Of a stretch of 31,894 nucleotides of DNA, positions 3,738 to 31,894 are shown piece after piece (the first letter of the stretch is position 1; the number at the start of each line of letters is the position of its first letter). The notes below the pieces were generated by a model. It saw only the letters and a program-made list of their open reading frames with translations. It ran no database searches and was not told the origin of the DNA. The position numbers and the translations under genes were made by a program. The stretch lies in the IMG/VR virus record IMGVR_UViG_2558860161_000001; one strand, 5' to 3'. This stretch comes from a virus. Its lineage: Duplodnaviria > Heunggongvirae > Uroviricota > Caudoviricetes.

Positions 3738-4904
3738 TTAAACTCCTTTGACGACGTCGGCGTTGACCTGCGGGACCCCGATTTCAGCAGCCAGATTCAT
3801 GGCGGCTATCACCAGGTTACTGACGGCCAGCGGATACAGCAGGCTGACCATGCTTTTACGGCTACTACCCAGATTGCTCAGACGGGCGCGGATGGCTTCC
3901 ACTGCGCTGGCGTCCATGATGTCGGCCAGCTGCTTACCGGCACGTTGCAGTTTGAACGTCAGAAACTCTTCGAGGCTGTTGTCCAGCGGCAGCAATTCAA
4001 CCAACTCGCAGCGCTGGACGACCTCACGGACTTCCATGTTGCGTTCGGACAGTTTGTCCGCCAGTTCAGGCTGGCCAATCAGCACGATGGACAGCAGTTT
4101 TTTGAAGCCGGACTCCAGTTCGAAGAAGCGTTTAAGGTGCTTCAGCGTCGGAATGGGAAGGCTGTGGGCCTCCTCAATCACCAGAACGTGGCTGAAACCC
4201 GCCTGACTGCTGTCCTTCAGGACTCGGTGCAACTGGCGGAAGCGGGCGTCCTGGCTGCGTTTGATACTCTCCAGCGGCGCGATGGTGCTGATGATGGCCT
4301 CGGCGATAGCTGCCGCCTTCAGGGTTTTGCCCTTCACGTCGTTGTCTTCCATGGCGATGATGTATGGCTCGATTACAATCACCGGCGCGTTCTCGCGGTT
4401 GACGCGTTCAATCAGGTCGCGGCGCAGCGTGGATTTACCCGCACCGGACTCGCCGATAACCGCCAGAAAGCCACCATGGCGGGCGGTCTGGAACAGCGCC
4501 TCACGCACGTAGCGGATATCCGGCGTGGTGAACACATCGTCCGCGCCCTGCATGGCTTCATCGGCGAACGGATCACGGAAAAGGCCAAACGCTTTTTTGG
4601 TTGCTGGAAATAACACCTGCTTTTTGAGTAACATGTTCTCTTCCTCACTGAGGTTGGTTTTATCGGTAGTACCCGCTGTACGGGGCGTGACAGCGCCCTG
4701 TGCAGCATCAAAACTTTTCACTGTATCAATCCCCTTACTTTCCAGATACAACGCCAGACGCTGGCGTACCTCTTCGGGGCTGGTGCGTGGCCACTCGTTA
4801 TGGTTCACAATCTGGGCCAGCGTGGCCTCGGAAACGGCGACGGCTCTTGCCACCACCGCCTGCGGGATGCGGGCCTCTTTCAGTTGTTGCTTCAGTACCA
4901 GCAT
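3738..4904 (-). CDS. Transposition helper AAA+ ATPase (MuB/TniB-like)
   Basis: Walker A GESGAGKST and Walker B-like HVLVIEEAH. GAGGAGG Shine-Dalgarno before ATG at 4902..4904. Immediately downstream of the transposase gene, as in Mu A-B. Confidence 0.85.
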   Translation of the reverse strand: MLVLKQQLKEARIPQAVVARAVAVSEATLAQIVNHNEWPRTSPEEVRQRLALYLESKGIDTVKSFDAAQGAVTPRTAGTTDKTNLSEEENMLLKKQVLFPATKKAFGLFRDPFADEAMQGADDVFTTPDIRYVREALFQTARHGGFLAVIGESGAGKSTLRRDLIERVNRENAPVIVIEPYIIAMEDNDVKGKTLKAAAIAEAIISTIAPLESIKRSQDARFRQLHRVLKDSSQAGFSHVLVIEEAHSLPIPTLKHLKRFFELESGFKKLLSIVLIGQPELADKLSERNMEVREVVQRCELVELLPLDNSLEEFLTFKLQRAGKQLADIMDASAVEAIRARLSNLGSSRKSMVSLLYPLAVSNLVIAAMNLAAEIGVPQVNADVVKGV

Positions 4905-4914
4905 GCCTTCCTCC

Positions 4915-6684
4915 TCAGTTACCGTTAACGATGCTGATAACGCTGTTGCGGGCCGGAGTGGTCAGGGTAACCATCACCTCATCCAGCGCGGCTTCAGGTA
5001 CGCCATCCGGGTACTGCGCCGTTAACTGGCGGTAATGTTCCGGCGTCCAGATATGGCCGTTAGCGCCAAACTTCTCGCGCAGGGCTTTCGCCGCCTCCAC
5101 ATGGGTCAGCGGACGCTGCTCAATACGCGGCCCGCGCACGTCTGAAGCCTGACCGCGCTTCGGCATATAGGCCGGAAGCGTGGTGTCGTCGATATGTTTG
5201 TACGGGTCAAGTCGCCCGCCGAACGGCAGCGCCTTCGCCTTGCGTGCAGCAGCTGCATCGGTGGCGTTATCGGTGCCCGTAACCAGCTCTTCGATTTCTT
5301 TTGCCGCCGTCTGCGCCGGGGTCTCCGGCAGGGCTTTGTAGTTTTCGCCAAATACCGCCGCGTTTTCGGCAAAGCCGAACTCGTTCTTTCTGACCTCCTC
5401 GACCAGGAAGAACGTCTCGTGACCGTCCTCACCGGTCAGCACCACCTGCGCCACATCGCTGCGCCACGGGTTACGGGTAATCATCAGTTTTTCGCCGACC
5501 AGTACGCCCGGTACCGTCGAAACGTCAAACTCATTGCCCCGGAACGAGACGCGCAGTTTTGGTGTGACCTTACGGAGTTCCGGTGCGGCCACCGCCAGTT
5601 CGCGGCAAACCTCAACGGATGGCGCTTTTTTCAGCTGGTCAGCAGTAATCTTCAGCCAGATATCCGTGCGGGTTTTACCGTGGCGGCTGTGGACCGCCGT
5701 GGCGTTAAAGTGGCTGCGCCATTTCACCGCCAGTGCGTTCAGTTCGTCCAGGCTATGAACCGGCTGGAATTTGAGACCCGGCTCCAGTTTACGTTCGATA
5801 ATGTCACGGGCCTTTTCCACCTGCCCGGTGGCGCGGGCGTTATGCGGCTTGTGCGCTATCAGATTGATGCCCAGCGAGCGGCACATGTTTTTCGTCATGC
5901 CAGCGGTGTTCGCCGAACCGGGATCAAGGTAGAGTATTTTCGGCACGCCGTGCAGCACGTCCGCGCCGCCGCGCTCCTGCATGGCGTTGATAAGCACAGA
6001 ACAGAGGTTCTCACCAGATTCCGCACCCATCACGTACTCAACGTAAATCCAGCCGCTGGTATGGTCGGTAATCTCGTAACTCCACACGCGGTCACTGGCG
6101 ATGCGGGCGATGTTGGCAGGCTTGTTCTTGTAGAACTTCGAGCTGTCCATCACCTGCAACCCTTTATGGCCGTTGCTCAGGTAGTAAAGCGTACAAAGTG
6201 AGGCATCAATCTCCCAGACGTGATTGGGATGCAGGCTGGCCATCTCGGACGACGGGGCCGGTGCGTCAAGCTGTTCCGGGTGCAGACCATAGTTCCGCAG
6301 GGCGCGGCTGATGGTGTCCTCGGACAGCGGGAAAAACTCGCCTGTGGCCTCGTCCGTTCTGCCAGCAGTGATAAAGCCGTTTGACCGCAGGGTCTCCACC
6401 GCATCCGCGATGGAATACAGGCGCTTACCGTTCTTACGGGTGGCCTCGCGCAGCGTGGCAGATATCAGCGCGGCTTCGTCGCGGCTCAGGGCACTGCGCC
6501 CGGCATCGGCGCGTTTTTTACGTTTGTCAGTCACTGATACCTCCTTCAGCTTGCGCAGCAGGGTGGCGCGGGAAATGCCCAGTTCGGCGCAGGCGGCATC
6601 ATATATCGCACCACGCTTACCATGCCCCGCGTCACGTGCCGCGCGGGCAACATAAACCAGTCGTTCAGTCAGGGCGGCACTCAT
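4915..6684 (-). CDS. DDE transposase (transposable-phage TnpA, rve/Tn552-like catalytic core)
   Basis: 589 aa. N-terminal HTH-like region, then catalytic residues in HVWEIDAS and ILYLDPGSANT contexts followed by a conserved Glu region. AGGAGG Shine-Dalgarno 8 nt upstream. Confidence 0.9.
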   Translation of the reverse strand: MSAALTERLVYVARAARDAGHGKRGAIYDAACAELGISRATLLRKLKEVSVTDKRKKRADAGRSALSRDEAALISATLREATRKNGKRLYSIADAVETLRSNGFITAGRTDEATGEFFPLSEDTISRALRNYGLHPEQLDAPAPSSEMASLHPNHVWEIDASLCTLYYLSNGHKGLQVMDSSKFYKNKPANIARIASDRVWSYEITDHTSGWIYVEYVMGAESGENLCSVLINAMQERGGADVLHGVPKILYLDPGSANTAGMTKNMCRSLGINLIAHKPHNARATGQVEKARDIIERKLEPGLKFQPVHSLDELNALAVKWRSHFNATAVHSRHGKTRTDIWLKITADQLKKAPSVEVCRELAVAAPELRKVTPKLRVSFRGNEFDVSTVPGVLVGEKLMITRNPWRSDVAQVVLTGEDGHETFFLVEEVRKNEFGFAENAAVFGENYKALPETPAQTAAKEIEELVTGTDNATDAAAARKAKALPFGGRLDPYKHIDDTTLPAYMPKRGQASDVRGPRIEQRPLTHVEAAKALREKFGANGHIWTPEHYRQLTAQYPDGVPEAALDEVMVTLTTPARNSVISIVNGN

Positions 6685-6687
6685 GGG

Positions 6688-7596
6688 TTATGCCTCCTGC
6701 CCGTTAATCTCTGGCGTCGGGTCAGTCAGCCATGAAGGGGCGGCGTTGCCTGTCGGCTCGTCCGGCAGGTCAAATGTGGAGCGTAGGCTACGCGCGGTGC
6801 TTTCCAACTGGCAGACCAGACCGGCCATAAAGTCTCTGGGGGTATCAATCATATTTTCAGCACAGTATGCGCACAGGGTCTCAAAGGCGCTGGACAGTCG
6901 AACGGCGATGGCAGATTCCGCCTCAACCGCTAACGCTGTAACTTCCGCACGCAGCTTCTTCACCTCTTCGTCAGGCTTGGGCGGCTGGATACGGGATTTC
7001 TTCTCCAGTTTTGTGGAGAGCGAGTCGATTTTTTCGTTTTTGTCGGCAAGCACGCGCTGTTGTGCTGCGTTGGTTTCGCGGGCTTCACGTAGGGCTTGAC
7101 GCAATTCTCTACAGCTCATGCGGTCGACATCATCTAGTTTCAGACCCGCTACAGTGCCACCATCAGCCAGTTCAGCGAGAGATTCATCATCTTCAGTCAT
7201 CAATTCAAAAAGTTTGGATTTACCCAAATGTGCCAACGTTGGCACATTTGATTTCAGTGCGGGGGATAAGTATTTAGTCGATGCTTGCATCATCCGCACA
7301 GAAGTTCGGTATGGTAAGCCCAACTCATTTTCAAGAATGTTAATAAATTCCCCGTGCGGCTCATTTTCTTTAAGAATTACAAGGCGCTTACCTGCTTCCA
7401 GCATCGCCTCAGCACTCTGTGCCATATAAAACCGTGTTTCGTGAACAATACGATCACGTTCATACGGCAGACCATCACCGAACTGCTGCATGATTTCGAG
7501 GCGATGTTCGGTCATGGCATTAAGACTAACGTTGAGGCCATCACTCAGCGGAGCATCTTCCATTAGTTCAACTGGTTGTGATTTTGTGCGTCCCAT
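6688..7596 (-). CDS. Early protein with DUF3102-like N-terminal domain and central coiled coil
   Basis: Motif AGKRLVILKENEPHGEFINILENELGLPYRTSVRMMQAS resembles the DUF3102 signature (from memory). GGAG Shine-Dalgarno before ATG at 7594..7596. Confidence 0.55.
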   Translation of the reverse strand: MGRTKSQPVELMEDAPLSDGLNVSLNAMTEHRLEIMQQFGDGLPYERDRIVHETRFYMAQSAEAMLEAGKRLVILKENEPHGEFINILENELGLPYRTSVRMMQASTKYLSPALKSNVPTLAHLGKSKLFELMTEDDESLAELADGGTVAGLKLDDVDRMSCRELRQALREARETNAAQQRVLADKNEKIDSLSTKLEKKSRIQPPKPDEEVKKLRAEVTALAVEAESAIAVRLSSAFETLCAYCAENMIDTPRDFMAGLVCQLESTARSLRSTFDLPDEPTGNAAPSWLTDPTPEINGQEA

Positions 7597-7605
7597 TTCA
7601 ACTCC

Positions 7606-7911
7606 TTAGCGACTACCAGCCATAACACGCTGGTTGATTTCATTAATACGATCCTGCGCCCGCGCCATTTCGGTACTGTGCGCCATGGCGATTTGTAAGA
7701 GCTGGACTCCAGGGGCAAAACGCCCGTTATCCAGTTTCAGGGCCAGTCCTTCTTCGATAAGGGTATTGAGCGCCCGATTGATATTCGCCGGGGACTCGCC
7801 CAGAGCTGACGCCAGCTCGCCGTTAGAAACACCGTTCAGAGCGTGACCGCGTAAAGCCTTAAGGACACGCAAAATACGGGTACCTGAGCTTGATGTATTT
7901 GGTTTACTCAT
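7606..7911 (-). CDS. Winged-helix HTH DNA-binding protein (IclR/MarR-like N-terminal domain)
   Basis: TRILRVLKALRGHALNGVSNGELASALGESPANINRALNTLIEEGLA is a typical wHTH pattern. ATGA overlap with the ner stop. Confidence 0.6.
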   Translation of the reverse strand: MSKPNTSSSGTRILRVLKALRGHALNGVSNGELASALGESPANINRALNTLIEEGLALKLDNGRFAPGVQLLQIAMAHSTEMARAQDRINEINQRVMAGSR

Positions 7912-8132
7912 GACGCCTCCTTGAGGATGCCGGGGGTAACTTCTTTGCCTATTGCGACCGAAAGGTCTCGCAAAATCCGATAAGTCAAACGACCGCGTGG
8001 AAGTTCGCTTTTGCCTGCCCAGCGGCTGACAGCCTGGGTGACTGTTCGTGGCTCATAGCCCGCGTTAAGCGCGAACTGGCGCAAGCTACTGCCTCTTTCA
8101 ACCAGCCGTGCCCGAACTTGTTGTTTGTTCAT
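7908..8132 (-). CDS. ner: Ner-like DNA-binding protein (Ner/Nlp family), first gene of the early operon
   Basis: 74 aa from ATG at 8130..8132 (AGGA Shine-Dalgarno upstream). LRQFALNAGYEPRTVTQAVSR resembles the Mu Ner/E. coli Nlp HTH. Confidence 0.7.
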   Translation of the reverse strand: MNKQQVRARLVERGSSLRQFALNAGYEPRTVTQAVSRWAGKSELPRGRLTYRILRDLSVAIGKEVTPGILKEAS

Positions 8133-8176
8133 ATGCACCGTGTTCCTGTTGGGTTATGATGTACTCTATTGGGTCT

Positions 8177-8204
8177 ATTGTACGCACCCGAACGGGTATG
8201 TCAA
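8177..8204 (-). promoter_or_regulatory. Predicted early promoter (Pe): -35 TTGACA, 16-nt spacer, -10 TACAAT, with dyad operator ACCCG-AA-CGGGT in the spacer
   Basis: Reverse complement of 8199..8204 is TTGACA and of 8177..8182 is TACAAT. The inverted repeat at 8186..8197 sits between them. Located about 45 nt upstream of the ner start codon. Confidence 0.55.
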
Positions 8205-8220
8205 ATTGAGATATGTTCAA

Positions 8221-8631
8221 ATGAGTATAAAAGAGAGATTGCGCGAAGCGATGGATGCTAAGAGTCTGACAATTAAGGCATTGTCAGACTTGTCAAAAAT
8301 TCCATATCGCTCACTTCAAAACTATCTGCGTGGAGAGAGAGAACCTAATGCAGAGGCTCTTGTTGCGCTAAGCACCCATTTGAACATATCAATAGATTGG
8401 CTACTTACTGGTAAAGGGGAAGCTGTTGGGGTAGAGAAAGCACAGCCAGCTAATCAGGAGCAGCATTTCAACCAGTCTGATCTGAAGTTATTGGAGCTGC
8501 TCAACCAACTGGAGCCAGAGGTGCGAAAAGAGTTGCTGCGAGGCGCTGAGGAAAAACAGCGAATGATTGATATGGAAAAACAGCTTAAGGAGCTGTCCGC
8601 AGCGTTCGAAAGATTAAAAAATACGGGTTAA
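8221..8631 (+). CDS. XRE-family HTH repressor (CI/c-like immunity repressor, no peptidase domain)
   Basis: N-terminal HTH (LTIKALSDLSKIPYRSLQNYLRGEREP...ISIDWLLTGKG) and C-terminal coiled coil. Divergent from the early operon. ATG at 8221 preferred over the upstream alternative start of the track ORF. Confidence 0.7.
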   Translation: MSIKERLREAMDAKSLTIKALSDLSKIPYRSLQNYLRGEREPNAEALVALSTHLNISIDWLLTGKGEAVGVEKAQPANQEQHFNQSDLKLLELLNQLEPEVRKELLRGAEEKQRMIDMEKQLKELSAAFERLKNTG

Positions 8632-8672
8632 TCTGTTCCTATTAAGAACATTATAGGTATAAGGACATGACT

Positions 8673-9200
8673 ATGCGCAAATTATTTTTACCGTTGATAT
8701 TTGTTTTATCTGGGTGTGGAGATAATACCGATCCTGCTGATACGTCCACCACAGCTAAGGAGCACGCGGTTTTTAGCGTTGAAACAGATAATCCGGTTGT
8801 AAATCGCGAATTACCGTTTATTCGCCAACAACTCCCCGGCCTGGATAAGTACGCGGACAGTTTTGAAAAAGTCGAAGTATCCGAGGATAGCGAACGTCCG
8901 GTGACAACGGTGCAGTTTCATATTAAAGACGAAAATAATATTCCAAGTGACTACATAGCCTCTGGTCATAATTGTTATTTGTTCATATCAAATAATGCCC
9001 ACGAAGTGAAAATATCTAAATCAGCATGTCAGGCTGTTTTTTTCGATAAAACGGATGTTCCTGGTGGAGACCTGACCGTGAAACTTGATAAGGAAAAAGT
9101 TCCTATGACAGATGATGGTAAGACCCCGCGAGCAGGTTGTTTGAAAGCTTATTCACCAGAGCCAGATAATGATTATTGGACTTGTCCAAGGCAGGATTAA
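8673..9200 (+). CDS. Lipoprotein of unknown function (moron; lipobox LSGC)
   Basis: Signal peptide MRKLFLPLIFVLSGC with lipobox Cys. Four further Cys in the mature part. AAGGA Shine-Dalgarno 7 nt before ATG at 8673. Gene and the adjacent repressor are markedly AT-richer (about 40-43% GC by eye) than the rest of the prophage (about 55-60%). Confidence 0.65.
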   Translation: MRKLFLPLIFVLSGCGDNTDPADTSTTAKEHAVFSVETDNPVVNRELPFIRQQLPGLDKYADSFEKVEVSEDSERPVTTVQFHIKDENNIPSDYIASGHNCYLFISNNAHEVKISKSACQAVFFDKTDVPGGDLTVKLDKEKVPMTDDGKTPRAGCLKAYSPEPDNDYWTCPRQD

Positions 9201-9206
9201 ATGTTT

Positions 9207-9233
9207 AGGTGGTGCTGCAGATGCACCACCACC
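9207..9233. terminator. Hairpin between convergent lipoprotein and methyltransferase genes (possible bidirectional terminator)
   Basis: AGGTGGTGC ... GCACCACCT inverted repeat centred on CTGCAG. Weak T-tracts, so termination efficiency is uncertain. Confidence 0.4.
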
Positions 9234-9247
9234 TTTAACTACCTCTT

Positions 9248-10018
9248 TCAAAAATTACAAATTACCAGCTCTTTCTTCGGGCTGGGTTTGCCTGTTACCT
9301 TAAGGTTGTAGCTGATATCAACCGACTGCATGTTCAGACCGTTGAATACCTGCCGCATTTCCGGGATATCGTTCACTGATATAATCATCTTCCCTTTGAT
9401 CCTTCGCGCTAAATCTGCCATGTGATCATAGTTTTCCAGCCCGAACTCCACACCATAGCCTTCCGTTCCCCAGTACGGTGGGTCACAGTAGAACAGCGTA
9501 TGCGGGCGATCATATCGCTCTATGCACTGGTGCCAGTCCAGATGCTCTATCAGCGTTCTCGACAGGCGCAGGTGTGCCATCGACAGTTCTTCCTCAATAC
9601 GCAGCAAATTGAAGCGCGGCGCACTGGTTGTAGAGGTACCGAATGTGTGATCGGCGACCTTGCCGCCAAATGCCTGTTTCTGCAGGTAGTAGAACCGGGC
9701 CGCCCGCTGAATGTCGGTGAGCGTTTCTTCCGGCGTATCCTGCAACCATTTGTAAATCTGACGGCTGACCAGCGCCCATTTGAACTGGCGAATAAATTCT
9801 TCCAGATGATGCTTGACCACCCGATAGAGGTTCACCAGTTCCCCGTTGATATCGTTAATGACTTCGGTCTTGCTGGGAGTCTTTAGGAAATAGAGCGCAG
9901 CTGCCCCGCAGAACGGCTCCACATAGCAGGTATGGGCCGGAAACAATGGTAAAATATGCTTCGCCAGACGACGTTTACCGCCAATCCATGGGACGATGGG
10001 TAAAGATTGTTCTTTCAT
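9248..10018 (-). CDS. Dam-family N6-adenine DNA methyltransferase (orphan, no cognate endonuclease seen)
   Basis: Motifs PWIGGKRRL, VEPFCGAAALYF (AdoMet binding) and DPPY (catalytic), in the D12-class order. Start set to ATG 10016..10018 rather than the TTG at 10042. Confidence 0.85.
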   Translation of the reverse strand: MKEQSLPIVPWIGGKRRLAKHILPLFPAHTCYVEPFCGAAALYFLKTPSKTEVINDINGELVNLYRVVKHHLEEFIRQFKWALVSRQIYKWLQDTPEETLTDIQRAARFYYLQKQAFGGKVADHTFGTSTTSAPRFNLLRIEEELSMAHLRLSRTLIEHLDWHQCIERYDRPHTLFYCDPPYWGTEGYGVEFGLENYDHMADLARRIKGKMIISVNDIPEMRQVFNGLNMQSVDISYNLKVTGKPSPKKELVICNF

Positions 10019-10121
10019 TATCCGTAAGCCTTTTGCAATCAATGAAAATATGGCAGGCTAGTCTGGTCTCGCGAGACTGACTGAACCCTGGTCGGCTCAC
10101 AGTGCATACCTGTGGGTTGAT

Positions 10122-10165
10122 GACCAGCCTGGTGTTACCGCACCGGGCTGGTCGTTCTTTCAAAG
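10122..10165 (+). other. Composite hairpin (GACCAGCC ... GGCTGGTC with inner GGTG/CACC) followed by GTTCTTTC; terminator-like element or small RNA 3' end
   Basis: Inverted repeats at 10122..10129 and 10146..10153 with an inner 4-bp stem, then a T-rich run. Lies in the 247-bp intergenic region between the methyltransferase and the lysis genes. No upstream plus-strand gene explains a terminator here. Confidence 0.35.
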
Positions 10166-10265
10166 CCATCATGCGGTTCACGTCTGCATCCTCACTATTA
10201 ACGCTGTTTAAAATCCCTTTCCCCGACCATTTGTGATGCTGTCTCCACTACACAAGGAGACGCTC

Positions 10266-10616
10266 ATGAAAAACCTGAAAAAATTCATTCCCCCTGTTAA
10301 AAAGCCACGTCTCAGCGGCTGGCTGCTGACCGCTGTGCTGCTGCTCGGCACCATCGGTCTGGTATCGCCCCAGCAGCTGCCGGTGGTTGTCTACAAGCTA
10401 TCACTCATCACGCTGGCGGCAGTATTGGGCTACTGGCTTGACCGTTCGCTTTTCCCCAAAGCCCGTCCCGGTCAGTACCTGAAGCATGATGACAGGCTGA
10501 TGGCTGATGGTCGCTTCCCTGTCCAGACTGGCCTTCACCTGGTCTTTTCTGCTGCGCTAATCCGCCGTGCGCTGATTGTTGCTGCAGTCTGTCTGGCCGT
10601 AGCGATGGGGCTTTAA
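10266..10616 (+). CDS. Membrane protein, first gene of lysis cassette (putative holin)
   Basis: AAGGAGA Shine-Dalgarno 5 nt before ATG at 10266. Three hydrophobic segments. TAATG overlap with the next gene. Confidence 0.5.
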   Translation: MKNLKKFIPPVKKPRLSGWLLTAVLLLGTIGLVSPQQLPVVVYKLSLITLAAVLGYWLDRSLFPKARPGQYLKHDDRLMADGRFPVQTGLHLVFSAALIRRALIVAAVCLAVAMGL

Positions 10617-11353
10617 TGATGACCCTCTATATGTACTGGCCTCAGGTTGTCTGGGCCGTGCTGGTACTGCTGGGGCTGGGCATCGAACTGGCCCGCTACG
10701 GGCAGGCCCGAACGGGTAAGCACAGTTTCTGGTGGCAGCTCTTTGGTTCAGTAACGGTAGCCTGGCTGCTCTGGTGTGGCGGCTTCTTCAGTCAGGCCCG
10801 CGCTGCCCAGCCACCGCAGACCGCGCTGCAGTATCGCGACGATGTGATCCGTAATGCCCGGCTTGAATGGGGAATGTCTGCGCCGGTGGCCGACTTCGCC
10901 GCGCAGCTGCATCAGGAAAGCGGCTGGCGACCTGATGCGGTCTCGCCGGTTGGCGCTCAGGGACTGGCGCAGTTTATGCCCACCACCGCTGACTGGATAA
11001 GTCAGCTGATGCCGGGGCTTAACAGCCGTGAACCGTTTAATCCGTCTTGGGCCATCCGGGCGCTGGTCAGCTATGACCGCTGGCTGTGGCAACGCGTCAG
11101 CGCCGTCAATGACTGCGAGCGTATGGCCATGACGCTGTCAGGCTATAACGGTGGTCTGGGCTGGGTACAGCGGGACAAACGGCTGGCCTCGCAGCAGGGG
11201 CTGGACAGCACCCGCTGGTTTGGTCATGTCGCCACGGTGAATGCCGGACGCAGCACTGCCAACTGGCGGGAGAACCGTCATTATCCGCAGCGCATCCTGC
11301 ACGAACTGGCCCCGCGTTATCTCACCTGGGGAGGCGGCAGCTGTGTGGACTAA
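10616..11353 (+). CDS. Membrane-anchored lytic transglycosylase (SLT-domain endolysin)
   Basis: SLT catalytic motif LHQESGWRPDAVSPVGAQGLAQFMPTTA, preceded by two N-terminal hydrophobic segments in the same ORF. Confidence 0.8.
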   Translation: MMTLYMYWPQVVWAVLVLLGLGIELARYGQARTGKHSFWWQLFGSVTVAWLLWCGGFFSQARAAQPPQTALQYRDDVIRNARLEWGMSAPVADFAAQLHQESGWRPDAVSPVGAQGLAQFMPTTADWISQLMPGLNSREPFNPSWAIRALVSYDRWLWQRVSAVNDCERMAMTLSGYNGGLGWVQRDKRLASQQGLDSTRWFGHVATVNAGRSTANWRENRHYPQRILHELAPRYLTWGGGSCVD

Positions 11354-11996
11354 CCTGCTAAAAAATCTGCCGTGGCGCAGTCTGCTGCTGGCGGTGGTCA
11401 TAAATGCTTTTCTGATTGGGCTTTATTACCTGGGCTACAAAAGCGGGCATGAAAACGCCACGCGCGACGGCGATAAGGCGGTCAGTGAGTTGCAGTCAGC
11501 ATTCGACACGTACAAAACGGAGCAGGCAACGCTTGAGAACGCTGCGTTGCGGGCTTGGGCGAAACGGTATCAGGAACAGGTAGCCGCCGGGCAGCAGGCT
11601 GAAGCCAGTTACCTTGAGCAGATTGCTCAACTGGAGAGCCAGAACAAACAACTACAGGGGCAAATTAACGATGTCACACAGCGCTGGATTGATGAAAAAG
11701 GTAAGAGCCATCCCATTGAGTGCGTGTTTACTCGCGGTTTCGTGCGCCAGTACAACGCCGCGCTCGGATATGACAACGCATCCGTCGACACCGGTCATTC
11801 AGACGCAACTGCCGCCGCTGGCACCGGCACTGGCGCAGCGTCCGGGCAACCTGAAGCCGCTGACGCCTGGCTACGCAACTCAGGCGTCTCCCAGCGTGAT
11901 GTCCTCGCCAACATCATCGACAACGCGAAGCAGTGCCGCATCTGGCGCAGCCAGATAAACGGGATGCTGGACGAACGGGAAGGATTACAGAAATGA
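11343..11996 (+). CDS. Rz-like i-spanin (inner membrane spanin subunit)
   Basis: GTG start at 11343 after GGAGG. N-terminal TM (LLLAVVINAFLIGLYYLGY) then a predicted coiled-coil periplasmic domain. Contains an embedded +1-frame lipoprotein gene. Confidence 0.6.
   Translation: MWTNLLKNLPWRSLLLAVVINAFLIGLYYLGYKSGHENATRDGDKAVSELQSAFDTYKTEQATLENAALRAWAKRYQEQVAAGQQAEASYLEQIAQLESQNKQLQGQINDVTQRWIDEKGKSHPIECVFTRGFVRQYNAALGYDNASVDTGHSDATAAAGTGTGAASGQPEAADAWLRNSGVSQRDVLANIIDNAKQCRIWRSQINGMLDEREGLQK
11692..11958 (+). CDS. Rz1-like o-spanin (outer membrane lipoprotein) embedded in the Rz frame
   Basis: MKKVRAIPLSACLLAVSC lipoprotein signal followed by a Pro-rich mature region (PSTPVIQTQLPPLAPALAQRPGNLKPLTPGY). 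Entirely inside the i-spanin gene in another frame. Confidence 0.55.
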   Translation: MKKVRAIPLSACLLAVSCASTTPRSDMTTHPSTPVIQTQLPPLAPALAQRPGNLKPLTPGYATQASPSVMSSPTSSTTRSSAASGAAR

Positions 11997-31392: not shown

Positions 31393-31894
31393 ATGGCAAA
31401 CCTACCTGAAACACCGCAGTGGGAAGAAGGCATCTACCAGATTGAGGTCTCTGACCCCGTTCTGGGTGGGCCTGACGGAATCTCTAACCGTCAGGGTAAA
31501 CAACTGGCCAGCCGCACGCTGTACCTGAAGCAACAGGTTGAAAAAGGCGGTTCTGAACTTGCGAAACACATCGCGGCAGCAGACCCGCATACCCAGTACG
31601 CACCGAAAGCCAGCCCGACATTCACCGGCACGCCAACAGCGCCTACGCCTGCAAATAGTGATAACAGCAAGAAGCTGGCGACGACAGAGTTTGTGGCCAA
31701 AGCACTTGCGGCGCTTGCTGGCAGCGCTCCTGAGACGCTGGATACGCTCAAAGAGCTGGCTGATGCCCTCGGCAACGATCCGAATTTTGCGACCACGGTG
31801 TTGAACAAGCTGGCGGAAAAGCTGGCCAAAGACCAGCACGGCGCAGATATTCCTGACCCGGCGCTCTTTGTCAAAAACCTTGGTTTGGGAGAAG
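31393..31894 (+). CDS. Tail fibre protein, N-terminal part (truncated by window end)
   Basis: ATG at 31393, open to the window end, so not in the ORF track. My translation MANLPETPQWEEGIYQIEVSDPVLGGPDGISNRQGKQLASRTLYLK...PTFTGTPTAPTP is a conserved tail-fibre N-terminus. Confidence 0.75.
   Translation, partial: MANLPETPQWEEGIYQIEVSDPVLGGPDGISNRQGKQLASRTLYLKQQVEKGGSELAKHIAAADPHTQYAPKASPTFTGTPTAPTPANSDNSKKLATTEFVAKALAALAGSAPETLDTLKELADALGNDPNFATTVLNKLAEKLAKDQHGADIPDPALFVKNLGLGE

Follow-up and report, generated by a model that had tools for sequence, protein, structure and literature searches.

The 31,894-nucleotide stretch recorded in IMG/VR as IMGVR_UViG_2558860161_000001 (called the window below, always at its full length) consists almost wholly of DNA of a BcepMu-like transposable prophage of Escherichia coli. 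Behind its immunity-repressor-like gene lies a gene for a predicted lipoprotein of 175 amino acids (aa), and the domain carried by this protein appears, from sequence comparison, to represent a previously undescribed family of periplasmic, disulfide-bonded domains. The gene is best filed under a known kind, the accessory envelope proteins that prophages encode in their immunity operon, and what is new is the domain itself. As for its function, we tentatively favour a factor of exclusion or defence that would be expressed in the lysogen and act from within the periplasm, a reading to which we give a probability of about 0.4. The features of the region are the following (nt, nucleotides; HTH, helix-turn-helix):

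8139-8220: divergent control region of 82 bp between the ner-like and repressor genes
8221-8631, plus strand: immunity-repressor-like gene, 136 aa, HTH plus coiled-coil tail, presumed first gene of the operon
8632-8672, plus strand: spacer of 41 nt, from the repressor stop (8631) to ATG 8673, without a terminator
8634-8650: palindrome of 17 nt within the spacer, TGTTCCTATTAAGAACA
8673-9200, plus strand: prolipoprotein gene, 175 aa plus stop
8673-8717, plus strand: predicted type II signal peptide MRKLFLPLIFVLSG-C, cleavage before C15
8718-8762, plus strand: predicted flexible tether, Asp/Thr/Pro-rich, roughly mature residues 2-16, variable in the alignment
8763-9092, plus strand: conserved core domain, in which two helices carrying PGLDKY precede a beta-sheet that contains the invariant pair C101/C119
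9093-9197, plus strand: optional C-terminal tail with a second Cys pair (..PRAGC..WTCP..)
9203-9239: GC-rich hairpin between the convergent lipoprotein and dam genes, with a poor U-tract

The open reading frame (ORF) extends from 8667 to 9200 on the plus strand. Its likely start is the ATG at 8673, with a Shine-Dalgarno sequence (AAGGA, 8660-8664) 8 nt before it, and there is a second in-frame ATG at 8667. An identical coding sequence is found in RefSeq, labelled as hypothetical protein (WP_001228474.1), and 35 homologues were retrieved from the databases at E<=1e-33. Compared with alleles 66-86% identical, the ratio of non-synonymous to synonymous substitution rates (dN/dS) was between 0.07 and 0.15. 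The homologues, the low dN/dS and a confident AlphaFold2 model all indicate that this is a real gene under strong purifying selection and not a chance ORF.

The initial annotation of this DNA had reported an LSGC lipobox and four cysteines in the mature protein, and we confirmed both. The lipobox is encoded at 8706-8717, and the n-region, h-region and lipobox are parsed as MRK-LFLPLIFV-LSGC. Among 17 aligned homologues G14 and C15 were invariant and L12 was at least 90% conserved; lipidation at Cys15 is predicted from this canonical lipobox. Besides C15, the cysteines of the mature protein are C101, C119, C157 and C171 (numbered from M1 = ATG 8673). The mature N-terminus reads C-G-D-N. According to the "+2 rule" of E. 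coli, Asp after the lipidated Cys leads to retention in the inner membrane, and otherwise the lipoprotein goes to the outer membrane. Since the residue at +2 is Gly and not Asp, we infer that the protein ends up in the outer membrane, on its inner leaflet.

The structural prediction that had been proposed for the mature protein yielded a confident AlphaFold2 model, with a mean predicted local distance difference test (pLDDT) of 85.9 and values below 50 for mature residues 1-15 only. Over most of the core domain the pLDDT was at least 90, and the best stretches in the profile searches correspond to about positions 30-140. The fold search that accompanied it gave no convincing match: the best Foldseek E value was 0.22 against PDB and 0.08 against BFVD, and a profile search with the lipoprotein found no match among the PDB sequences. 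The rest of the protein is more variable in the family. The C-terminal Cys-loop tail is absent from the forms of 134-147 aa, and in forms of 304-312 aa (L035:5016-5933, L043:5010-5939 and L036:5025-5939; L numbers designate the loci compared) an insert of about 130 aa, with a weak match to phrog_23218, is found between the core and the tail. In the 309-312-aa relatives examined (L043, L046 and L054) the mature protein starts with C-D-S/G, and retention in the inner membrane is predicted for these forms.

It had also been stated that the protein resembles no recognisable family. This stands as far as Pfam and NCBIfam are concerned, in which the lipoprotein has no match, and 28 family members likewise lack an informative Pfam match at E<=10. 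The sole library match is to the C-terminal third of phrog_10002, a family with no assigned function (E = 5e-14, residues 25-132 against profile positions 215-321 of 328). An exhaustive profile search collected 186 cluster representatives (at 50% identity) at E<=1e-3, and 70 at E<=1e-10. The members are mostly of 120-200 aa and have in common a core, about 110 residues long, that is marked by the motifs (W)PK...(C)PGL(D/N)KY, IP..Y.A.GH.C and K..C.S.C(L)D. About half of them carry a lipobox; in the others the anchor is a single membrane helix, with or without a cytoplasmic zinc ribbon in front of it, or there is just an ordinary signal peptide. Because the N-terminal anchors differ so much, the core can be taken, on sequence grounds, as an extracytoplasmic domain that is hung on either membrane or is soluble. 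The cysteines point in the same direction. In 110 members the cysteine of CPGL is accompanied by the final one of C.S.CLD, in 34 both are missing, and only 9 have a single one of the two (Fisher p = 3e-25, a value uncorrected for relatedness and hence inflated). Cysteines that come and go in pairs in this way are a mark of a disulfide and therefore suggest an oxidising, extracytoplasmic location. The protein of the window (LPGLDKY ... CQAVFFD) has lost both covarying cysteines and keeps the invariant GHNC/KSAC pair.

The position of the gene, 41 nt after the repressor stop and on the same strand (spacer 8632-8672), is as first described, and the operon with the repressor that was proposed from it remains probable. 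The product of the upstream gene matches Pfam HTH_3 (5.8e-11) and Phage_CI_repr (8e-6), together with PHROG transcriptional repressor families, and the gene is divergent from the ner-like early operon. In a consensus scan of the repressor-lipoprotein spacer neither a sigma-70 consensus promoter nor an intrinsic terminator was called, and the fold of the spacer is weak (-4.3 kcal/mol). The gap between repressor and lipoprotein genes stays at 33-41 nt in relatives, and the gap to the upstream plus-strand gene is 10-66 nt in most of 52 related loci. Given the common strand, the 41-nt spacer free of a terminator and the tight spacing kept in relatives, co-transcription of both genes in the lysogen is the simplest and most economical model. 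At the other end, the hairpin at 9203-9239 (-18.8 kcal/mol, z = -3.93) was equalled by none of 200 shuffles, and strong hairpins are found at the equivalent place, 3' of the gene, in relatives. The consensus terminator scan did not call it; we consider it a likely bidirectional terminator. On the repressor side, a near-consensus promoter (TTGACA-16-TACAAT, 8204..8177, minus strand) faces the ner-like early operon. The repressor ATG at 8221 lacks a Shine-Dalgarno sequence, and its mRNA is possibly leaderless or has a short leader.

The palindrome in the spacer is itself conserved. Its core, TGTTC.yATTAAGAAC, was invariant in 8 relatives from several genera in which the neighbouring coding DNA is about 60-90% identical, and the 3' end of the repressor gene is also conserved across repressor and lipoprotein types. 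The window contains the palindrome once, a number close to the chance expectation, so that the argument for it is one of conservation; for the same reasons, we discarded the idea of a repeated operator. It may be a protein-binding or regulatory site, an RNA element, or a linker for homologous recombination in the exchange of modules. Rfam gave no match within 7000-10500.

A content of guanine plus cytosine (GC) far below that of the prophage was among the initial observations, and had been interpreted as a sign of recent acquisition. The figures bear out the former. The GC of the lipoprotein gene is 41.7%, and 34.7% at third codon positions (GC3), compared with 56.2% for the window and, for GC3, about 65-72% in its structural genes, and both values are also under those of E. 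coli. Only 0.8% of the 528-nt sliding windows were equally AT-rich, and all of these start between 8196 and 8925. The sliding-window and GC3 comparison did not, on the other hand, confine the low GC to the lipoprotein gene: the repressor gene (44.5%) is in the same trough, and the low-GC unit is the repressor-lipoprotein pair and not the lipoprotein alone. A recently acquired foreign gene, possibly unadapted or non-functional, would fit this composition as well as the presence/absence polymorphism among E. coli BcepMu-like prophages. However, slot and orientation are constant across genera and in 52 viral contigs, the gene is under strong purifying selection, and synonymous divergence (dS) between lipoprotein alleles is saturated. 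Furthermore, in all 43 distinct relatives the GC of the gene was under that of its locus, by 2.4 to 16.9 points (mean 9.5), and it ranged from 31 to 64%, tracking the host phage, with hosts of 43-68% GC included. Together with the AT-rich repressor, this led us to reject recent acquisition, which we regard as highly improbable.

The alleles of the two genes have been shuffled. Measured against the window, the identities of repressor and lipoprotein are, respectively, 88 and 43% at locus L002, 62 and 52% at L005, and 62 and 86% at L020. The transposase, gp27 and terminase of L044 are 100% identical to those of the window, and its lipoprotein, of 309 aa, is 38% identical. Two main repressor types and two main lipoprotein types can be distinguished and all four combinations exist, which indicates recombination between the two genes. 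Alleles shuffled over near-identical backbones are typical of genes at the phage-host or phage-phage interface.

The place of the gene, in turn, is widely maintained. Close homologues from Morganella (43% identical), Serratia/Klebsiella (52%, a short form of 147 aa) and E. fergusonii/Salmonella (66%) are located 36-41 nt after a 136-aa repressor in the same kind of prophage. A scan of IMG/VR retrieved 52 loci that show one pattern wherever the flanking sequence is retained: the gene is on the plus strand, after a divergent ner/IclR operon and an immunity gene and before the lysis and packaging genes (holin and SLT endolysin where recognisable, Rz, gp27 and terminase). The same-strand gene upstream varies and the lipoprotein gene stays. 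That neighbour can be one of several unrelated HTH repressors (112, 136, 139 or 145 aa), a protein of 262 aa whose HTH-like N-terminal region precedes a longer C-terminal part, a membrane protein with two helices and about 178 aa, or a tail-anchored protein of 194-208 aa (phrog_5825). All family members with examined genomic context are found in phages or prophages, mostly transposable; one integrase-type contig with phage-like genes carries the family gene in an accessory region near int.

Within this place the gene is optional. In the partial genome deposited for the isolated phage PhiKM, whose transposase is 93% identical, the lipoprotein gene is absent and dam comes 116 nt after a 118-aa repressor. 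The ABU 83972 prophage of E. coli is arranged alike, with dam directly after the repressor. Transposases of this kind were detected in 639 of 5,426 complete E. coli genomes (ca. 12%); 22 of the 639 have a detectable allele of the 175-aa gene and 2 the long form, in counts made by nucleotide search that leave very divergent alleles uncounted. Carriers among E. coli are patchy and come from both humans and animals. BcepMu itself has an unrelated membrane protein, gp18, at this position after the repressor gp17; neither gp18 nor gp19 could be retained as a family member, since no homology was found. As the lipoprotein is optional and a membrane protein takes the same position in BcepMu, the place after the repressor serves as a slot for proteins of the envelope, and the lipoprotein family is its commonest occupant in the sampled lineages. 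The gene is thus an accessory ("moron"-type) gene of the immunity region, to judge by its presence or absence among related phages and its deviant base composition. As to a promoter and terminator of its own, the hairpin after the gene is terminator-like and the scan called no consensus promoter in the spacer.

The stretch from the lipoprotein or repressor gene to the holin is a second variable slot, which contains dam, a gene of the NA37 nucleoid-associated family plus a 402-aa gene, or small genes (L008/L009:6549-8836; L001:8163-8729; L151:4843-6180). Genes for defence or counter-defence may accumulate at this place.

An accessory gene in the immunity region, AT-rich and with shuffled alleles has the usual profile of prophage anti-phage genes. 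We propose that repressor and lipoprotein would be transcribed together in the lysogen, with transcription ending at the hairpin 9203-9239. The product, lipidated at Cys15, would have a tether of about 15 flexible residues leading to a compact, disulfide-stabilised domain and then the Cys-loop tail, and it would be anchored at the inner leaflet of the outer membrane with the domain acting inside the periplasm. There, most likely, it would hinder incoming phages as they pass the cell wall or deliver their DNA (superinfection exclusion or defence of the lysogen). Because the domain works from either membrane in the family, a periplasmic target seems likelier than the masking of a receptor from outside.

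Masking of this phage's own surface receptor is not part of the proposal. The lipoprotein gene is about 23 kb from the tail-fibre genes, and its alleles do not track the fibre: the lipoproteins of L014 and L015 are 99% identical and the N-terminal parts of their tail fibres only 64-66% identical to the reference, compared with 96-98% in L011 and L017. A role in masking a receptor matched to the own tail fibre, in the manner of T5 Llp, is hence unsupported and unlikely. In the copy of the prophage present in E. coli strain 730V1 (L068:32804-36126) there are two opposed sets of fibre and assembly genes with a serine-recombinase gene adjacent, which we read as an invertible host-range switch, similar to the G segment of Mu, that would provide two fibre specificities. 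If so, one single receptor-masking protein would be an unlikely solution.

The closest experimental precedent is phage Fc02, a transposable phage with a homologous transposase (56.7% identical to that of the window) that also carries accessory genes in its repressor/ner regulatory region. Its gene 10 and olg1 were shown to produce exclusion with plasmid constructs (PMC9936078). The plasmid-expressed olg1 excludes superinfecting phages, and the gene adjoins the repressor in the lysogeny-lysis regulatory region, apparently on the forward-strand transcript that is expressed in the lysogen according to strand-specific RNA-seq (PMC9936078). The Fc02 genes differ in being upstream of the repressor or overlapping the early operon, and they code for small proteins that are not lipoproteins and are not homologous to the one described here. 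By analogy, they lend plausible, indirect support to superinfection exclusion.

Among the exclusion lipoproteins, Ltp of the Streptococcus thermophilus phage TP-J34 is also encoded in the lysogeny module, next to the repressor. The likeness extends to a flexible linker to the membrane, a folded extracytoplasmic domain and the expected expression in the lysogen. However, no match to Pfam Lipoprotein_Ltp was found in 28 family members at E<=10. Llp of T5 and Cor of phi80, N15 and HK022 are lipoproteins that block FhuA-dependent phages. They had been offered as models in the initial annotation, and they are indeed small phage-encoded outer-membrane lipoproteins with disulfides. As a family assignment the comparison fails: there is no relation in sequence or fold and no match of the lipoprotein to a Cor- or Llp-annotated family in Pfam or PHROG, and the gene of the window is not beside a receptor-binding gene, nor do its alleles co-vary with the tail fibre. 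A tblastn search with the mature lipoprotein in 50,697 phage records (E<=0.01) recovered only two records of this same phage. By analogy, the protein would work most like Ltp and the repressor-linked exclusion genes of Fc02.

Lambda Bor and plasmid TraT are conversion lipoproteins of mobile elements, and Bor sits beside the lysis genes. The lipoprotein described here resembles them in being encoded by a mobile element, in its presumed expression in the carrier state and, as in Bor, in a location near lysis genes. These likenesses bring in a second function, lysogenic conversion unrelated to phages, such as serum or complement resistance, adhesion or stress tolerance, with which the predicted lysogen-expressed position and the accessory, AT-rich and patchy nature of the gene in E. 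coli from humans and animals would agree. We consider it doubtful. The 28 members lack similarity to Bor or TraT, or to any Pfam family, even at E<=10, and many members would be anchored in the inner membrane or soluble in the periplasm, hence away from the surface. Moreover, the family members examined are confined to phages and prophages of hosts as disparate as Maridesulfovibrio, Pseudoxanthomonas and enterobacteria, which argues for a function centred on the phage and not on the niche of the host. By the tests available the lipoprotein does not belong to the Cor, Llp, Ltp, Bor or TraT families.

A third possibility emerges from the genes that follow along the prophage. The remaining features of the window are:

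1-135: host flank, with the prophage starting at about 136; it contains a small ORF, MWYLLWFVGILLMCSLSTLVLVWLDPRLKS, which we take to be AppX-like
Minus strand, early region: DUF3164 gene
3738-4904, minus strand: ExeA/MuB-like ATPase
4915-6684, minus strand: DDE transposase
Minus strand, early region: DUF3102 gene
7606-7911, minus strand: IclR-type HTH gene
7908-8138, minus strand: ner-like gene
9248-10021, minus strand: Dam-type methylase gene, convergent, between the lipoprotein and lysis genes
From 10233, plus strand: holin
From 10616, plus strand: SLT endolysin
11343-11996, plus strand: Rz
11692-11958, plus strand: Rz1 (embedded o-spanin), out of frame inside Rz, MKKVRAIPLSACLLAVSC then a proline-rich mature part, lipobox AVSC
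After the lysis genes, plus strand: Mu gp27-like, terminase, portal, head and contractile-tail genes
About 31402-31894: first tail-fibre gene, within which the window ends

Several observations weigh against a lysogen-expressed exclusion factor. No repressor promoter reached the scan threshold in 8139-8220, and a weak promoter-like sequence (TTCCTA-16-TATAAG) can be read by eye in the spacer, under the scan threshold, so that the lipoprotein gene may have a promoter of its own there. Neither the window protein nor six relatives and partner proteins matched any family of PADLOC-DB 2.0 at E<=0.01. The literature, searched by protein accession and for BcepMu lipoproteins and Mu-like exclusion lipoproteins, makes no mention of the family. 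Finally, there are gene orders that do not fit. One metagenomic BcepMu-like contig (L064) has a 33-aa ORF and then the family gene after the repressor, with mor, holin and SLT following in that order, and in a Mu-like prophage of Pseudoxanthomonas (L067) the family gene is away from the repressor, overlapping the end of mor and preceding holin and SLT directly on the same strand. The latter arrangement implies that some family members would have to be expressed in the lytic cycle.

These gene orders speak for a lytic, lysis-associated role in the envelope, in which the protein would temper endolysin or spanins, affect release or prevent the loss of progeny on debris. Just upstream of the holin/endolysin/Rz block is where the gene stands in nearly all loci, and in L048 it is part of a tight same-strand array running towards the lysis genes. 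For the window, however, we find this role rather unlikely. The convergent dam gene and the hairpin stand between the lipoprotein and the lysis genes, and the lysis set is already complete with holin, SLT endolysin, Rz and embedded Rz1. The last of these, with its ATG at 11692, also led us to reject the lipoprotein as o-spanin. PhiKM, which was isolated as a phage, does not have the gene in the partial genome deposited for it. The family is also present in loci without a tblastn match to the holin and SLT of the window (L041, L047-L052 and L055-L056), which weakens in particular a link to the SLT-type endolysin. In a Mu-like prophage of Maridesulfovibrio the repressor is followed by the lipoprotein gene at the prophage end, distant from the lysis genes.

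Coming back to periplasmic exclusion, some relatives provide the domain with a cytoplasmic counterpart. The proteins of phrog_10002 (324-328 aa) begin with a cytoplasmic domain similar to the N-terminal part of Flk and cross the membrane by one helix, and their C-terminal domain is a homologue of the lipoprotein core; the lipoprotein of the window and the fused protein of L024:3867-4838 (324 aa) share 28% identity (BLASTP, E = 3e-15), and L024 encodes a separate lipoprotein as well. They differ from the window protein in being bitopic inner-membrane proteins, whereas the latter would be a periplasmic domain with a lipoprotein anchor and the extra Cys-loop tail. The tail-anchored proteins of phrog_5825 have the Flk-like domain in common with the N-terminal half of phrog_10002. 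A partial match (E = 1e-14 to 1e-15) to NCBIfam NF007987, the flagellar regulator Flk, covers the cytoplasmic N-terminal part of the latter and was found at L048:4360-4950, L036:4393-4977, L041:4358-4984 and L024:3867-4841. To our knowledge, Flk-like domains have not been described in phage immunity regions. The fusion suggests that the domain can form one end of a membrane-spanning protein and does not by itself reveal its activity.

A motif, F-H-G-x-V-G-Q-V-A-x-G-(D/N)-I-N-N, is found in relatives both at the C-terminus of the repressor and at the N-termini of the membrane proteins encoded downstream (L048:3937-5758; L055:4362-4799; L042:786-1265; L024:3867-4841). The latter include the Flk-like tail-anchored protein, a 129-aa two-helix protein and a zinc-ribbon membrane protein. 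The motif hints at a shared tag for interaction or degradation; the repressor of the window lacks it.

From these arrangements one could conceive the lipoprotein as the periplasmic half of a trans-envelope sensing or anchoring module tied to the lysis-lysogeny decision and communicating with the Flk-like domain. The architecture of phrog_10002, the many relatives in which the phrog_5825 protein is between repressor and lipoprotein, and the motif common to repressor and membrane proteins speak for it. Nevertheless, the Flk-like partner and the motif are both missing from the window phage, whose repressor has just an HTH and a coiled coil, and the fusion fits a two-part exclusion protein equally well; we think this version quite improbable. 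More broadly, the domain could be the periplasmic part of an undescribed envelope-spanning module of transposable-phage immunity regions, which would occur as the domain alone (as in the window), paired with the Flk-like tail-anchored protein, or fused to it. Such a module would be a DNA-entry exclusion machine or would couple envelope events to the repressor switch, and the domain would have a new fold; we consider its existence unlikely.

As to the element as a whole, a prophage 98.8-99.9% identical is located inside narU of E. coli O19:H7 730V1. The copies have different chromosomal sites, one next to the host flank seen in the window and one in narU, which fits insertion by transposition. 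Two further deposits, "Escherichia phage Phi06_2974 B" and a clone of "Klebsiella phage KP12", contain near-identical DNA.

As it stands, the lipoprotein gene is a plausible but ordinary-looking prophage moron. What makes it of wider concern is that the accessory genes of BcepMu-like prophages, present in about 12% of the complete E. coli genomes, are almost unstudied, and that the family to which it belongs occurs in phage and prophage contexts across the Proteobacteria, at a fixed place by the immunity gene, under purifying selection and yet with shuffled alleles, and has no detectable relative of known structure or function. If the protein is an exclusion factor, it would define a new family acting in the periplasm, encoded in a single gene of 175 aa, and could affect the host range of phages used in therapy against E. 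coli, Klebsiella, Serratia, Salmonella and Morganella. Otherwise, the fusion to a Flk-like domain would point to an unexplored membrane biology of the lysogeny module.

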